Origin: a virus
DNA: 44,680 nucleotides
Virus genome (UHGV): UHGV-0024713
Reading direction: 5' to 3' (one strand)
The translations under genes were made by a program, and so were the position numbers. The notes under the pieces are model-generated. The model saw nothing but the letters and a program-made list of their open reading frames with translations, did not search any database and was not told where the DNA came from. Positions 3,189 to 14,992 of this stretch are shown in pieces (within the stretch, counting starts at the first letter, position 1; every line of letters starts with the position of its first letter).

Positions 3189-3229
3189 ATTGGTTGCGTC
3201 CGCCCTGGCACCTTGCTATATTGGTTGCA
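3189..3229 (+). promoter_or_regulatory. sigma70-like promoter with embedded motif pair upstream of 3248..3556
   Basis: -35 TTGCGT (3194-3199) inside motif copy 1, 17-nt spacer, -10 TATATT (3217-3222) overlapping motif copy 2 ATTGGTTGCA (3220-3229). Confidence 0.5.
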
Positions 3230-3247
3230 CACCAACATGAGGACTGA

Positions 3248-11381: not shown

Positions 11382-12468
11382 TCAATATATGGCGGATCGA
11401 ATGATTCGCCGTCACATCTTCACCCAGCGCCTGAGCAATGATCAGGCGCGGAGGGTGCTGGCTATGTGGGAGAAGTTCCGGCCCACTTTACTGGGTAAGC
11501 TGACCGAGTTACTTGATGGCAAAAAGTCCATGAACAACAAGGCACTTACCACTCTGTTAACGCAACTAGACAAGACCGTCAAAACGGAACTGCGCGCCGA
11601 GTTTAAGGCGCTGGCGGAGAACCTTCAGGAGTTCGCCGACACCGAGGCTGATTATCTCGCTGACACACTAACGGCAGCGATCCGGCCCGCTGTCGCCGTA
11701 CCGGCTGTTGAAGTAGTTGGCGTTGTTACCGGCGCGCAGATTGCAGCGACGGCAATGAAAAACCCGTTCCAGGGTAATACGATGATGCAATGGCCTGACT
11801 CACTCTCTGAGTGGACCAGGACGCAGATCGGTAATCAGGTGCGCGCTGGATTCATCCAGGGCAAGCCGACTATGGAAATTATTGCGGACGTGAGGCGCGC
11901 GCTAGGTGGTCGCAGTGCGCAAGCCATCTCGAGCGTTGTTAAATCCGCAGTCAACCACTATGCGGCTACAGCCCGCGAACTAATGGTAAAAGCAAATGAC
12001 GATATTCTCGAAGGTCGCCAGTGGTTATCTACATTGGACACGCATACTTCTCCCATGTGCCAGCTACGCGATCGCCTGTTTTATCCGGTTGATGTTACTC
12101 CCGACACCAAAGGAAAGCGCGGCGGTAAAGTGGTGGCGGGGTCACAATATGGCGCTGGTCCGGGCAAGTTGCATTATTGTTGCCGGTCGACGGAGACGTG
12201 GAAGGTTAAAGGCATGGAGGATTGGCCCAGTGGTAAGCGTCCAGCACTGAAGGCTGACGCAGGCCGATTGCTGAGTGAGCAGGTCGACGCGCAGACTGAT
12301 TTCTTCTCATGGGTGCAGCGCCAGCCGCGCCATATCCTGGAAGAATTATACGGAGTGCAACGCGCCGACCAGATTATGCGCGGCGTGAAAGTGCCGAAGA
12401 TGTTTACCGATTCTGGCGAACTGATGACTATCGCACAGCTTAAAAACCGGGGGTTATGGCGTGATTAA
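11365..12468 (+). CDS. Head morphogenesis / minor head protein (Mu F / SPP1 gp7-like position)
   Basis: 367-aa ORF overlapping the portal 3' end; call by position. Confidence 0.5.
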   Translation: MAKTINQYMADRMIRRHIFTQRLSNDQARRVLAMWEKFRPTLLGKLTELLDGKKSMNNKALTTLLTQLDKTVKTELRAEFKALAENLQEFADTEADYLADTLTAAIRPAVAVPAVEVVGVVTGAQIAATAMKNPFQGNTMMQWPDSLSEWTRTQIGNQVRAGFIQGKPTMEIIADVRRALGGRSAQAISSVVKSAVNHYAATARELMVKANDDILEGRQWLSTLDTHTSPMCQLRDRLFYPVDVTPDTKGKRGGKVVAGSQYGAGPGKLHYCCRSTETWKVKGMEDWPSGKRPALKADAGRLLSEQVDAQTDFFSWVQRQPRHILEELYGVQRADQIMRGVKVPKMFTDSGELMTIAQLKNRGLWRD

Positions 12469-12790
12469 ATATGCAGCGATAGGACTGGTTATCGGTCTGG
12501 TGGTAGGCTTCTGGCTGGGTGATTCCCACCGCGCTGCCGTTGTGGCGAAAGCGGCGCAACAAGCGCAAGCAAAAGCCCAGCGGCAGCAAACTAAGGTTGT
12601 CGAGCGATCCGTGCAGGCCGAACAGGCCCGCGACGTGGAATACCGGACTATCACGAAAGAGGTTGTTAAATATGTTACGCGTCCTAACCGCCCTGATTGT
12701 AGTTTTGATGCTGAGCGCGTGCGGATCAAGCAACGTGCCGTTGATGCCGCTAACGGAGTCGGCACTGCGACCGCCGTGCAAGTTCGATAA
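12461..12790 (+). CDS. i-spanin (Rz-like inner-membrane spanin)
   Basis: N-terminal signal-anchor helix AAIGLVIGLVVGFWLG followed by Ala/Gln-rich helical periplasmic domain. Confidence 0.6.
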   Translation: MIKYAAIGLVIGLVVGFWLGDSHRAAVVAKAAQQAQAKAQRQQTKVVERSVQAEQARDVEYRTITKEVVKYVTRPNRPDCSFDAERVRIKQRAVDAANGVGTATAVQVR

Positions 12791-12902
12791 CCCGTCCGCA
12801 GACCCCGACGAGGATTTGATGATTGACGTGAAAAATATGGAATGCGGGGCGAAGCTGAGGGCGCAGGTGTTGGAGTTGCAGCAAATAATTAAGGGGCCGT
12901 AA
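12672..12902 (+). CDS. o-spanin (Rz1-like outer-membrane lipoprotein), overlapping the i-spanin in another frame
   Basis: Internal ATG of track ORF 12519..12902; signal peptide plus lipobox LSAC; proline-rich mature part with Cys. Confidence 0.6.
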   Translation: MLRVLTALIVVLMLSACGSSNVPLMPLTESALRPPCKFDNPSADPDEDLMIDVKNMECGAKLRAQVLELQQIIKGP

Positions 12903-12916
12903 TGGCCCATTTTCCG

Positions 12917-13681
12917 TTATCGCGGAATACCGCAAATCTCGTTGAGAGTTTTCACGTCCAGCGCCACCGCCGTGGATTTTGGCTTGTCCGGGTATGGGAT
13001 GAATTGCTCAACTTCAGGCCACGCCTTAACCAGCTTCTTGTCAGTATTGTGCAGGTCCAGCACACCGGTAACGGTGAGTTTGAACGCATCATACTTCGCG
13101 CGCAACTCGCGACGGGCCTTGTCGTTACGGTCAAGGCGCTTACAGAAGTCATGGTCCGCCGGGTAGTCTACGCGACCGCGAGGGAGATATATCGGCAGCG
13201 CTTTCCCGTCCGCGTCAACTTCACATACTGACGCAAGCATAACCTCCTCGAACCCAGGTACGATATCGCCGAGATCGGGGGATAGCTTATTCATGTATTT
13301 ATATTCCCAGTATCCGCGATGTACGCGGTATTGGCGACCATCACCGCTCAAGGACAAGGTGCGAACATTTCCGCCTGCGTTGATTTCGAAAGTGGCGTCA
13401 TAAACGCGGCCTATACCCTTCGGGAGGCCTATGTCATAGCGATATGTTGCCTTGTTGGTGTAGACGCAGACGCAGTATATTGGCGACTTGGCACCTTCTA
13501 GTGCTTCGATGTGTGCGCGTAACTCGGCGAAAGTGCGAATGCCCTCCGGCATACAGTCCAGCGTGATTGCGTACGCCAGGTCGCGAGAGTCCATCATGAT
13601 TGATTTGGCTTCGGTAGCGATTTCATGGTCGCGCAGGATGTTAGCCAGAATCTGGTTTTTAATGTCTTTTGTCAGTCTCAT
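12917..13681 (-). CDS. Hypothetical protein (254 aa), antisense moron
   Basis: Start at internal ATG with GAGGA RBS; opposite strand to flanking structural genes; no recognisable motif. Confidence 0.6.
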   Translation of the reverse strand: MRLTKDIKNQILANILRDHEIATEAKSIMMDSRDLAYAITLDCMPEGIRTFAELRAHIEALEGAKSPIYCVCVYTNKATYRYDIGLPKGIGRVYDATFEINAGGNVRTLSLSGDGRQYRVHRGYWEYKYMNKLSPDLGDIVPGFEEVMLASVCEVDADGKALPIYLPRGRVDYPADHDFCKRLDRNDKARRELRAKYDAFKLTVTGVLDLHNTDKKLVKAWPEVEQFIPYPDKPKSTAVALDVKTLNEICGIPR

Positions 13682-13723
13682 TTTTGTGTCCTCGTGTTGG
13701 GGCTTTCGCCCCATTTGGCTTAG

Positions 13724-14131
13724 TTAAAGTGCTTCTAGAATCTCGTAAAACTTATTCGCCAGCGCCTGGCGGCGTTCGAATTTTTCAGTGATAACCAATT
13801 CCGGGCGGTTAAATAGCTTTGCGTGGGTGTTCCAATTGAGGATTTCCGTTTCCATTATTTTCTTCCGGTTGTAGTCGGTGTTTTTGATGCTAAATTCCTT
13901 GATAGCGTCATTAAGAAAATCAGTCATACACTCAACGTCTGTTCTCTTAACTTCGAACGAACGGGCCTCGATTGGGCTATTTGTGCGAAGTACGACGACT
14001 CCGCCGTGGTAGGTGTCGACTACCATATACTTATAAGTCACCCCATCCCACTCCGGATCGAAAGGGCGCCCAAATACGTCGTCGGCTTTCCACACTTTCT
14101 GGTACGGTGTTTCTTTGATTAATGTTGGCAT
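13724..14131 (-). CDS. Hypothetical protein (135 aa), antisense moron, AT-richer than surroundings
   Basis: AAGGA RBS; preceded on the minus strand by TTGCAA-18-TATATT with motif copies; visibly lower GC by eye. Confidence 0.6.
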   Translation of the reverse strand: MPTLIKETPYQKVWKADDVFGRPFDPEWDGVTYKYMVVDTYHGGVVVLRTNSPIEARSFEVKRTDVECMTDFLNDAIKEFSIKNTDYNRKKIMETEILNWNTHAKLFNRPELVITEKFERRQALANKFYEILEAL

Positions 14132-14160
14132 TTTGTTTTTCCTTCACGTCTCTGTTGGTG

Positions 14161-14184
14161 TGCGACCAATATATTGCAACCAAT
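14161..14184 (-). promoter_or_regulatory. Promoter candidate for the antisense cassette, with motif pair
   Basis: + strand TGCGACCAAT (14161-14170) and TGCAACCAAT (14175-14184); on minus strand TTGCAA-18-TATATT. Confidence 0.45.
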
Positions 14185-14287
14185 ACCAGGATTGCAAGCG
14201 AATTTTGCGATTATTTTTATCGCTGATAATATTAAAGGCGTGAAGTCGAGCGGGTGGCCCGCTCTGCCACAATCCCAGGGGGATAGC

Positions 14288-14992
14288 ATGAAACTTACTA
14301 AAGCTGAATATGACGCGTTGCCGGAAGGTATGAAGGCGCTTTTTGTTGCCGATGGTGACGGGTATAAATCAACGTTCATGACCGCCGAAGAAGTACAGGC
14401 GGAGATCAAGGGTCTGAAAGACAACAACGCGAAGCTGGTTAGCGAGAAGAAAGCAGAAGCCGAACGCCGCGCCGAAGCCGAGCGCCTTGCGAAAGAGAAA
14501 GAGGAAGCCGCCGCGCGCAAAAATGGCGACCTCGAAGCGATCGACAAGTCCTGGAAAGATAAGTTTGCGAAACACGAAGCAGACACATCGGGAAAAATCG
14601 AAGCCTACCGCAAGCAGATCCACGATCTAACCATCGGCAGCGCTGCCAAAGACCTGGCGTCGAAGCTGTTCGGTAAGAATGCCGGAATCATGCAACGCCA
14701 CGTTATGGACCGCCTAACGCTGGAAGACGGCGAAGACGGCAGCTTGAAAGTGCGTGTCTTGCAGGATGGCAAACCGTCCGCGCTGACAATGGAAGAGCTT
14801 GAAAAAGAGTTCCGTAATAACGCCGATTTTGCATCCGTCCTGGCTGGCACGCCAGCCGGTGGCGCGCCTAGCAAACCGACGCAGGTTGTCGAAGATGTGA
14901 AGTCGAAAATCACGATGGGCCACAGCTTCGGTATCACTGACCTTACGAAACAGGCGGGGGATATCATCGCGAAGATGGGCGACGACGAGTAA
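14288..14992 (+). CDS. Scaffolding protein (putative)
   Basis: Internal ATG with RBS; Ala/Glu/Lys-rich coiled-coil sequence immediately upstream of the major capsid gene. Confidence 0.55.
   Translation: MKLTKAEYDALPEGMKALFVADGDGYKSTFMTAEEVQAEIKGLKDNNAKLVSEKKAEAERRAEAERLAKEKEEAAARKNGDLEAIDKSWKDKFAKHEADTSGKIEAYRKQIHDLTIGSAAKDLASKLFGKNAGIMQRHVMDRLTLEDGEDGSLKVRVLQDGKPSALTMEELEKEFRNNADFASVLAGTPAGGAPSKPTQVVEDVKSKITMGHSFGITDLTKQAGDIIAKMGDDE

Follow-up and report, generated by a model that had tools for sequence, protein, structure and literature searches.

The closest described counterpart of the locus analysed here is nmad5 of the Dhillonvirus phages SM_S22 (CDS6) and SM_A8 (CDS7), studied by Yamashita et al. 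2025 (PMC11846954); both gene and slot are the same as here. In that study the gene is dispensable for plaques, an engineered delta-nmad5 phage being viable; nmad5 cloned alone is toxic to E. coli; and escape from Tmn is conferred by nmad5 K216E and not by nmad5 deletion, the anti-Tmn gene of SM_S22 being ORF35 (PMC11846954). Tmn senses the replisome-membrane protein T2 RIIB (PMC13001434). Our window, the whole 44,680-nucleotide stretch of UHGV virus genome UHGV-0024713, comes from a Dhillonvirus, i.e., an HK578-like coliphage. Nmad5 identity among close Dhillonvirus phages is 83–93%, and K216, within T-D-K-K-L, is common to the studied gene and the window, where residue 216 is the wild-type K. 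Because gene, slot and K216 are the same, the published traits (dispensable, toxic to clone, K216E escape) apply here. The 334-aa 'long' form of Nmad5 in PMC11846954 is an over-extended ORF call. Whereas SM_S22, the phage of the published experiments, has no gene upstream of nmad5, the window carries an extra 135-aa gene. The pair had been singled out by a sequence-only reading as a candidate for an undescribed two-gene system. In our analysis the region is probably a modular moron-type accessory-gene slot of Dhillonvirus, not a two-component system, and it is not undescribed, the record of phage SO-1 already flagging its slot occupant as a possible moron.

The two genes lie on the minus strand at 12917–14131, between the spanin genes and the scaffold gene, as the sequence-only reading had placed them; its coordinates, strand, flanks and lengths (135 and 254 aa) agree with ours. 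The upstream flank encodes the Rz/Rz1 spanins (phrog_2536, phrog_5672) and the downstream flank the head scaffolding protein (phrog_206). The first cargo gene, at 13724–14131 (minus strand) in the ORF listing, encodes the 135-aa protein from an ATG at 14131, with a Shine–Dalgarno sequence GAAGGA at 14140–14145 (minus strand), 8 nt 5' of the ATG; in other phages the unrelated 109-aa allele has this 5' UTR as well. After a gap of 42 nt follows the second cargo gene, nmad5, at 12917–13681 (minus strand), whose 254-aa product matches Pfam PF18757 and phrog_1965. Counted from its first ATG, the nmad5 ORF spans 12917–13714 and 265 aa. Its true start, however, lies at the ATG at 13681, for a product of 254 aa; the upstream ATG at 13714 falls within a hairpin stem and reads ACG in relatives. 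The Shine–Dalgarno sequence GAGGA at 13689–13693 (minus strand) lies 7 nt 5' of the ATG at 13681, and relatives are annotated with an nmad5 of 765 nt.

Both ORFs are real genes, as judged from purifying selection (dN/dS of about 0.12 for the 135-aa gene and 0.119 for nmad5). Their compositions differ. The 135-aa gene is AT-rich, as had been noticed beforehand, with a GC content of 0.456 (z -2.5, second lowest among 51 genes), and in this gene composition does depart from the surroundings. In nmad5 it does not: GC of 0.529 (z -0.22) and GC3 (z 0.00) are backbone-like. Neither the 135-aa protein nor Nmad5 has a hydrophobic or transmembrane segment, so a membrane-protein exclusion function is rejected for both; at pI values of 5.75 and 7.6, a DNA-mimic role is also unlikely for the two proteins. 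From their sequences, both are shown to be proteins of predicted soluble, cytoplasmic character under purifying selection. An Rfam scan of 12700–14400 gave no known RNA.

The gene pair is bracketed by regulatory signals of its own. A predicted sigma-70-like promoter and leader, conserved across loci, occupies 14154–14197 (minus strand), with a -35 element TTGCAA at 14192–14197, an 18-nt spacer and a -10 element TATATT at 14168–14173. No second promoter-like site lies within 12300–14500, and the TTGC core and the -10 element are kept in 19 of 19 aligned loci, with a variable spacer, in keeping with the earlier proposal that the genes have a promoter candidate of their own. The promoter includes a ATTGGTTGC box at 14176–14184 (minus strand), a motif that recurs genome-wide, and the promoter region a degenerate box, ATTGGTCGC, at 14162–14170 (minus strand). 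The motif linked to the -10 element, TATATTGGTYGCAC, has five copies in the window where 0.41 would be expected, without the linker hairpin (see below) at those sites. Since the slot promoter bears the phage's own ATTGGTTGC boxes, the unit appears to be wired into phage regulation. The leader contains an inverted repeat, TTGGTCGCACACCAA, forming a weak hairpin (-3 kcal/mol). At the other end, where the o-spanin gene (plus strand) and nmad5 (minus strand) converge, lies a hairpin, GGGCCGTAATGGCCC, at 12894–12908, which is predicted to be terminator-like in each direction (folding energies of -12.4 and -13.3 kcal/mol). This hairpin is kept in 19 of 19 loci, and sequence identity breaks immediately beyond it. 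From these sequence predictions and their conservation, the slot would be set apart from the operon around it by a promoter and a terminator of its own, and we infer that host RNA polymerase reads it early, apart from the late structural operon.

The position of the locus, between head-morphogenesis/spanin genes and scaffold/capsid genes, is what might recommend one or both products as structural or morphogenetic (a decoration protein, a protease or an assembly chaperone). The unit, however, is antisense with its own predicted promoter and terminator, neither protein matches a structural family, nmad5 deletion mutants are viable (PMC11846954), nmad5 is absent in HK578, SO-1 and others, and the 135-aa gene is absent in most relatives. 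We consider a structural role scarcely credible.

Comparison with relatives shows how freely the slot changes content. Among 18 distinct related genomes we find eight slot configurations and at least five unrelated cargo genes, i.e., those for Nmad5, the 135-aa ORFan, a 109-aa protein (phrog_24635), a 172-aa protein like a beta-clamp domain, and an ORF of about 53 aa; in GenBank phages these number 148 (Nmad5), about 61 (109-aa), 16 (clamp-like) and 7 (135-aa). Neither gene of the window is kept in all relatives, four of the 18 genomes lacking nmad5 and 13 of them the 135-aa gene. In HK578 the 135-aa gene stands alone, nmad5 being reduced to the first four codons, fused to the terminator; SM_S22 and others have nmad5 alone; SO-1 lacks nmad5; and Teewinot keeps residues 1–61 of Nmad5 only. 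In Serratia and Erwinia phages 135-aa homologues occur without an Nmad5 neighbour, and elsewhere Nmad5 is found alone or with three other upstream genes. The slot is dispensable for lytic growth, on the basis of natural absences for both genes together with the viable delta-nmad5 phage (PMC11846954); for the 135-aa gene that basis is natural absence.

These distributions bear directly on the proposal that the two genes were acquired horizontally as a co-functional pair (toxin–antitoxin, abortive infection, exclusion or anti-defence) in which the small protein controls the larger. A single promoter, the 42-nt gap and predicted co-transcription are what such a pair would have, the first gene is AT-rich, and the toxicity of nmad5 alone (PMC11846954) resembles that of a toxin encoded behind a small partner. 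But either gene occurs without the other, as described above, and the published toxicity and phenotypes come from SM_S22, which has no upstream gene. Neither protein matches a PADLOC model, and Pfam and NCBIfam return nothing relevant. Nmad5 has the composition of the backbone, and SM_W22, which has both genes, remains Tmn-sensitive. The pair reading is largely refuted by presence and absence, and we regard it as very unlikely; the genes assort independently, so that 'cassette' in the sense of a two-gene system has to be dropped. Nor does joint horizontal acquisition hold, Nmad5 being fully ameliorated and occupying the slot in about 148 records. The suggested moron character survives in part: the unit is accessory, with its own predicted promoter and terminator and variable presence, but nmad5 is not deviant in composition. 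Four genomes carry both genes, co-transcribed by prediction, which leaves room for a possible facultative functional interaction.

Within the accessory-slot reading, the promoter and leader, facing away from the scaffold gene, and the terminator shared with the spanin gene would bracket zero to two cargo genes; where there are two, the genes are joined by a conserved hairpin linker, and swaps take place at start and stop codons. In the window, the linker hairpin GGGGC-GAAA-GCCCC is at 13698–13713 (minus strand; -12.4 kcal/mol, z -3.3), within a conserved linker of about 40 nt that reads stop-CTAAACCAAA-hairpin-AACAACGAGGA. It is not followed by a U-run on the coding strand. The linker hairpin is found in 11 loci and as a single copy in the window, and the linker recurs at the 135/Nmad5, 109/Nmad5, clamp/Nmad5 and 109/clamp junctions, its conservation being independent of which genes adjoin. 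The conserved flanks reach the ribosome-binding site on one side and start at the terminator on the other, with sharp breaks between, and the boundaries of cargo replacement coincide with start and stop codons. In EP23, a leftover 3' end of the 109-aa gene follows the clamp gene.

A site-specific cassette-exchange device (integron-like or PeSL-like), with the linker hairpin as recombination site, would be in keeping with one hairpin joining any cargo pair, with replacement edges exactly at start and stop codons and with the 109-aa remnant in EP23, and it has a precedent in the PeSL promoter/stem-loop cassettes of T4-type phages (PMC2839356). The hairpin, however, occurs just once in the genome and has no associated recombinase, the endpoints of the HK578 deletion fall outside it, and homologous recombination across the conserved flanks accounts for every junction. 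A dedicated exchange device is highly improbable.

The two cargo proteins had both been described as unknown, which holds for the 135-aa protein and not for its neighbour. The 254-aa protein, as noted above a gene product with published phenotypes, is a full-length Pfam PF18757 (Nmad5) protein (E 2.2e-55; score 188.3 bits, the gathering cut-off being 27), with residues 12–264 of the 265-aa ORF aligning to profile positions 1–206 of 206. The family is present in about 148 GenBank phage records; a scan of genome contigs for Nmad5 confirmed a single locus and is uninformative, confirmation being bound to Dhillonvirus sequence. Across 11 diverse aligned proteins, drawn from six groups of phages, the residues M1, R2, G104, T213, W221, P222, L246, G251 and P253 are invariant. 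The protein here bears the signature T213-x-x-K/Q-L217-x-x-x-W221-P222-E223, the N-terminal M-R-L and the C-terminal L-N-x-x-x-G-x-P; a partly conserved A-D-H motif at residues 175–177 could be functional. We found no sequence relatives of Nmad5 in the PDB, and its AlphaFold2 model (pLDDT 63) is without an enzyme-like fold.

The name of the family bears on how the Tmn phenotype is read. PMC11846954 takes Nmad5 for a DNA modification enzyme. If it were a DNA-modifying enzyme, or a cofactor that such an enzyme cannot do without, Dhillonvirus DNA would be modified, and defence systems would read the modification. The Pfam name points that way, as does the position of Nmad5 between aGPT-Pplase1 and a dU hydroxymethylase in Yuavirus and Vojvodinavirus; of 341 phage records, about 62 have Nmad5 inside a thymidine-hypermodification cluster, so that a modification-linked role is possible for the family; the Tmn escape mutation lies in nmad5 (PMC11846954), and an adaptor could work for the Dam and Dcm methyltransferases that the phage encodes. 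Against this, no hydroxymethylase, kinase, aGPT-Pplase, radical-SAM or PLP enzyme is present among the other proteins of the window, and aGPT-Pplase, 5-hmdU kinase and dU hydroxymethylase are likewise not encoded in genomes of its type. About 80% of the phage records with Nmad5 are Dhillonvirus, lambdoid/Stx or Vibrio phages, and none of the contexts sampled outside the Yuavirus and Vojvodinavirus clusters has modification genes nearby. The 11 sequences share no invariant residue set of catalytic type, the model shows no enzyme-like fold, and deletion of nmad5 keeps Tmn sensitivity, unlike the loss of a sensed modification (PMC11846954). The enzyme reading is improbable here, and with hypermodification partners, invariant catalytic residues and an enzyme-like fold all missing, 'DNA modification enzyme' is a questionable label. 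Membership in PF18757 stands, the association with modification genes being contextual and not a sequence criterion.

As a tentative alternative, Nmad5 may be a non-catalytic binding or adaptor protein on complexes of DNA replication and metabolism, and not DNA-modifying here; its contacts would be made by the T-x-x-K-L-x-x-x-W-P-E surface and the L-N-x-x-x-G-x-P tail. The idea of a replisome adaptor is drawn from gene neighbourhood and analogy. In Stx and mEp235 lambdoid phages Nmad5 follows immediately on N; in Vibrio phage Athena1 it precedes the replication gene O; and in Yuavirus and Vojvodinavirus it has the genes for DNA polymerase and hydroxymethylase as neighbours. A clamp-like protein is an alternative occupant of the nmad5 slot.

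The 135-aa protein has no match in Pfam, PHROGs, PADLOC, NCBIfam or the PDB. It is a near-ORFan, with three clusters among 5.8 billion proteins, and occurs in 14 phage records (7 in the GenBank-phage tally). A profile search of 1.8 billion representatives gave five matches, two of them true; the other three were dropped as repeat proteins with inflated multi-stretch scores. Its AlphaFold2 model (pLDDT 68) yields no informative fold match, and a search of BFVD returned uncharacterised phage proteins only. Because confidence in the AlphaFold2 models is moderate for both proteins (pLDDT 63 and 68), a fold relationship may have been missed. Several candidate identities were rejected. A borderline Cas10d match (E 0.0098) was put down to chance, since it fell to E 0.49 once the family profile was used; the 135-aa allele is no diverged homologue of the 109-aa one (hhalign probability 0.3%); and the small neighbour gene is neither the anti-Tmn gene (SM_S22 ORF35) nor the KpAvs2 trigger Ksap1, both of which map elsewhere in the genome. 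SM_W22 carries a 135-aa homologue and Nmad5, yet Tmn still inhibits it. Of the defence-type functions proposed for such genes, the link of Nmad5 to Tmn is on record (PMC11846954), but neither protein matches a PADLOC defence or toxin–antitoxin model at E <= 1. With considerable doubt, the 135-aa protein could be a strain-specific host-takeover or counter-defence factor.

In sum, the window's cargo consists of a rare 135-aa allele and a wild-type nmad5, by prediction co-transcribed and independent in evolution, each protein presumably working alone at the host–phage interface. A bolder reading, which we think rather unlikely, makes the slot a regulated 'cargo bay' of stand-alone proteins, each modulating the host replisome or host immunity, the 135-aa protein representing a new counter-defence or host-takeover family and Nmad5 a non-enzymatic adaptor that touches the Tmn-monitored pathway through its conserved T-x-x-K-L-x-x-x-W-P-E surface. 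If that is true, the Nmad5 family carries a wrong name, and it would occur in hypermodification clusters because enzymes are targeted to replicating DNA, not because of catalysis. The first impression of a new two-gene system is in any case corrected. The label 'DNA modification enzyme' is in use in phage-therapy engineering work without supporting enzyme features in Dhillonvirus, and doubt over it bears on the reading of the Tmn escape mutation. For engineers, a natural dispensable slot with defined exchange edges, in a therapy-relevant coliphage genus, is a possible payload site. The 135-aa ORFan, together with the other genes that can occupy the slot, provides a handful of candidate host-interaction factors that can be put to the test.

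Set against known mobile and accessory units, the locus is partly alike and partly distinct. The Nmad5 proteins of Pseudomonas M6 and SN1, Yuavirus and Bordetella Vojvodinavirus share with the Dhillonvirus protein a C-terminal region of about 80 residues with T-x-x-K-L-x-x-x-W-P-E and L-N-x-x-x-G-x-P, and likewise the N-terminal M-x-R-L motif. The Nmad5 of these thymidine-hypermodifying phages, however, has about 186 aa as opposed to 254 aa with a lineage-specific insert of about 50 residues, and it is encoded between aGPT-Pplase1 and dU hydroxymethylase, whereas the Dhillonvirus genome is without such enzymes. Lambda genes such as ral and sieB, in the N-to-cIII interval of the pL operon, are accessory. 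That interval of lambdoid phages is the exact position of the Nmad5 homologues of mEp235 and the Stx phages, which supports an early, non-essential, host-directed role; the lambdoid transcript from pL is N-antiterminated, whereas the unit here is stand-alone and antisense. With the PeSL regulatory cassettes of T4-type phages and the hyperplastic regions in their genomes (Arbiol et al. 2010, PMC2839356), the slot shares the swapping of non-essential ORFans between close relatives and the bounding of swaps by a conserved sigma-70 promoter and a stem-loop. PeSLs, however, have many genomic copies and act as terminators, whereas the linker hairpin here is single-copy and lacks a U-run. With phage morons (HK97 gp15; SO-1 gp07, a 'possible moron gene product') it shares the addition of a transcription unit to a conserved late module, presence/absence polymorphism, dispensability and one gene of deviant composition. 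It differs from them in that Nmad5 is backbone-like, in that the slot promoter has the phage's own ATTGGTTGC boxes, and in that the host phage is virulent, which leaves no repressed prophage from which the genes could be expressed.

The window represents the genome of a virulent coliphage of the HK578-like genus Dhillonvirus, and its region 12400-14700 matched 159 phage records at 80-95% identity, nearly all of them Escherichia or Shigella Dhillonvirus. The gene order of the sequence-only reading was recovered, with the portal, the head morphogenesis protein and the Rz/Rz1 spanins upstream, scaffold and major capsid downstream, and two minus-strand ORFs in-between, at 13724-14131 (135 aa) and, as called, at 12917-13714. 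The true start of the second gene, nmad5, is really the ATG at 13681 (12917-13681, 254 aa), because a GAGGA Shine-Dalgarno lies 7 nt before it, the alternative ATG at 13714 forms part of a hairpin stem and is replaced by ACG in relatives, and the annotated length in relatives is 765 nt. A 156-aa ORF at 12440-12910 on the minus strand, antisense to the Rz/Rz1 spanin genes, is low-complexity (Ser- and Leu-rich) and has no annotated counterpart among relatives, and is on both grounds almost certainly spurious.

This accessory-gene site, or slot, was collected by scaffold-gene anchoring from 18 distinct genomes, in which eight configurations were found. The 135-aa gene followed by nmad5 (window included), a 109-aa gene followed by nmad5, and nmad5 alone each occupy four genomes; a clamp-like gene stands alone in two, including Sodalis phage SO-1; and single genomes carry the 135-aa gene alone (HK578), the clamp-like gene followed by nmad5 (EP23), the 109-aa gene followed by the clamp-like gene, and an ORF of ~53 aa followed by nmad5. 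Presence and absence at this junction therefore vary among close relatives, and the pair proposed as an undescribed two-gene system fails the co-occurrence test, each gene being found without the other. In HK578, the type phage of the genus (locus records L007 and L015), ATGAGACTGACG, the first four nmad5 codons, is fused to the terminator, and the linker hairpin and nmad5 Shine-Dalgarno are also kept just downstream of the 135-aa gene; to judge from its sequence, this slot is a clean natural nmad5 deletion from an ancestor with both genes. Only Nmad5 residues 1-61 are left in the slot of vB_EcoD_Teewinot, a Dhillonvirus of 41.8 kb, ~3 kb shorter than its relatives, and another natural nmad5 loss. 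The 135-aa and 109-aa first genes have their 5' UTR and their 3' boundary in common, but encode unrelated proteins. In GenBank phages, records number 148 for Nmad5, about 61 for the 109-aa gene, 16 for the clamp-like gene and 7 for the 135-aa gene. The slot is thus modular and dispensable, bracketed by a predicted promoter and terminator, with cargo that assorts independently.

The clamp-like occupant (172 aa; L013 2840-3406, L014 2839-3396, L016, L024 2480-2998, and SO-1 gp07, L030 5082-5600, each in its own numbering) is similar to the central DnaN beta-clamp domain (phrog_947 processivity factor, E 1e-9; Pfam DNA_pol3_beta_2, E 1e-4, below cut-off) and has homologues in about 270 phage records. 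Its PHROG-based annotation as a 'RusA-like Holliday junction resolvase' looks like a mislabel. The SO-1 record labels its own slot occupant a 'possible moron gene product'.

The promoter candidate of the sequence-only reading was borne out as a predicted sigma-70-like site on the minus strand (TTGCAA at 14192-14197, an 18-nt spacer, and TATATT at 14168-14173), the sole such site across 12300-14500. Its TTGC core and -10 element are conserved in 19 aligned loci, the spacer is variable, and identity extends to the ribosome-binding site of whichever cargo gene is first. At the other end, the predicted terminator hairpin GGGCCGTAATGGCCC (12894-12908, terminator-like on both strands; -12.4 and -13.3 kcal/mol) is conserved across all loci and common to the slot and the convergent o-spanin gene. 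Any two cargo genes, irrespective of identity, are joined by a linker of ~40 nt with a GNRA hairpin (GGGGC-GAAA-GCCCC, about 13698-13713 between the 135-aa gene and nmad5; -12.4 kcal/mol, z -3.3). This hairpin, present in one copy only in the genome, is not followed by a U-run on the coding strand and is therefore not an intrinsic terminator; an Rfam search of the slot region matched no family. A terminator behind the spanin genes seemingly interrupts the plus-strand late operon, and in 12300-14500 the scaffold gene is preceded by no sigma-70-like promoter on the plus strand (12894-12908 and 14132-14287 considered).

The 9-mer ATTGGTTGC has 13 exact copies in the window (0.57 expected), at 2782, 2817, 3099, 3189, 3220, 3754, 14176, 30283, 33258, 35162, 35179, 38130 and 44647, most of them intergenic in promoter regions and many paired 14-35 bp apart. 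Ahead of the small-gene/lysis/packaging operon, TATATTGGTTGCACACCAAC (3217-3236, plus strand) is one base off the slot promoter TATATTGGTCGCACACCAAC. The 9-mer is a candidate for an operator or for a promoter element specific to the phage, perhaps one used by the sigma70_r4/HTH protein encoded at 166-495. Since the slot promoter carries these phage boxes, the slot may be wired into phage regulation. Host RNA polymerase would transcribe it early, independently of the late operon.

The first gene is indeed AT-richer than its surroundings (GC 0.456, z -2.5, second lowest of 51 genes; GC3 z -1.2), whereas the compositional deviation does not extend to nmad5, which lies near the genome mean (GC 0.529, z -0.22; GC3 z 0.00). 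Both genes are under purifying selection (dN/dS about 0.12 for the 135-aa gene; median 0.119 for nmad5) and thus functional. Synonymous sites of the cargo have diverged far more than those of the neighbouring scaffold gene over the same phages (dS 0.51 for nmad5 and 0.12 for scaffold, the latter with dN/dS 0.017), which fits an exchange of old alleles.

The larger protein, taken initially as unknown, belongs at full length to PF18757 (Pfam 'Nucleotide modification associated domain 5', E 2.2e-55) and also to phrog_1965, a family without assigned function, and has published phenotypes. Mutants of two Dhillonviruses that escape the defence system Tmn, expressed in E. coli, have in common a Lys-to-Glu substitution in nmad5 (K216E in SM_A8, 'K296E' in SM_S22), reversion of which restores Tmn sensitivity; nmad5 deletion gives no escape, and cloning failed owing to toxicity (Yamashita et al. 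2025, PMC11846954). K296 corresponds to K216, which is wild-type in the window and lies within T-x-x-K/Q-L-x-x-x-W-P-E, the most conserved motif of the family. The 334-aa 'long' Nmad5 of SM_S22 (CDS0006, L032 2006-3010) shares ~200 nt with the annotated scaffold gene; it is an over-extended ORF call through the promoter region into scaffold, the real protein having 254 aa, so that the N-terminal truncation stated for SM_A8 Nmad5 is probably an annotation artefact. Because SM_S22 has the Nmad5-alone configuration, all published nmad5 phenotypes were obtained with no small gene of any kind upstream.

The name Nmad5 derives from gene neighbourhood. [quoted passage not shown] Among the products of the window are Dam, a DNA polymerase of family A, helicases of the SNF2 and AAA_25 types, nucleases and SSB, but none of the hypermodification partners (hydroxymethylase, kinase, aGPT-Pplase, radical-SAM or PLP enzyme). 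Of the 341 phage records matching Nmad5, about 80% come from Dhillonvirus, lambdoid/Stx and Vibrio phages. Its positions in the representatives inspected are early or accessory ones: immediately behind N in mEp235 and one Stx phage, in front of replication gene O in Vibrio phage Athena1, and in C130_2 and Serratia Smarc2 at the end of the early genes, next before lysis. In addition, the residues invariant across six phage groups (M1, R2, G104, T213, W221, P222, L246, G251 and P253) include no catalytic-type set, and conservation of an A-D-H motif is only partial. We tentatively favour Nmad5 as a non-catalytic binding or adaptor protein at complexes of DNA replication or DNA metabolism, given the replication or early genes adjoining it in other phages, the beta-clamp-like protein as an alternative slot occupant, its toxicity to the host, and an escape allele that alters the surface within the signature motif and is gain- rather than loss-like. 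Tmn, moreover, directly binds and thereby senses T2 RIIB, a replisome-membrane protein (PMC13001434), which points the same way.

The 135-aa protein had no match in Pfam, PHROGs, PADLOC or NCBIfam, and has 3 clusters among 5.8 billion proteins and just two true relatives in 1.8 billion cluster representatives. Its AlphaFold2 model (pLDDT 68) comprises a low-confidence N-terminal beta-sheet and three helices, for which fold searches returned only generic helical bundles (PDB) and uncharacterised phage proteins (BFVD). Neither cargo protein has a hydrophobic segment (pI 5.75 and 7.6), and each would act alone in the cytoplasm. Homologues of the 135-aa protein with 52-56% identity occur in Serratia phages and one Erwinia Drexlerviridae phage, in unrelated gene contexts with no Nmad5 nearby. 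The homologue in SM_W22 (L031 1801-2319) has 172 aa, because 36 residues of its C-terminal helical part are perfectly duplicated in tandem (RKKIMETEILNWNTHAKLFNRPELVITEKFERRQAL, twice). SM_W22 carries this homologue and Nmad5 and is still inhibited by Tmn (PMC11846954); against that Tmn, therefore, the small protein does not serve as an anti-Tmn factor. Nor is the small gene the published anti-Tmn ORF35 or the KpAvs2 trigger Ksap1, both located elsewhere in the genome. Its accessory, patchy, AT-rich and horizontally scattered nature suggests, as a rather doubtful best guess, a strain-specific host-takeover or counter-defence factor.

In sum, this is a real, neatly organised accessory locus of an ordinary kind, half of it already studied. 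The moron-type insertion first proposed holds as an accessory unit with predicted promoter and terminator, but not as a paired new system. The PeSL-bounded hyperplastic regions of T4-type phages (PMC2839356) match by analogy only, as their defining feature is a repeated composite motif, whereas the linker hairpin here is single-copy. Closest overall are the classic phage morons, the Pfam Nmad5 family and the Dhillonvirus nmad5 already published.
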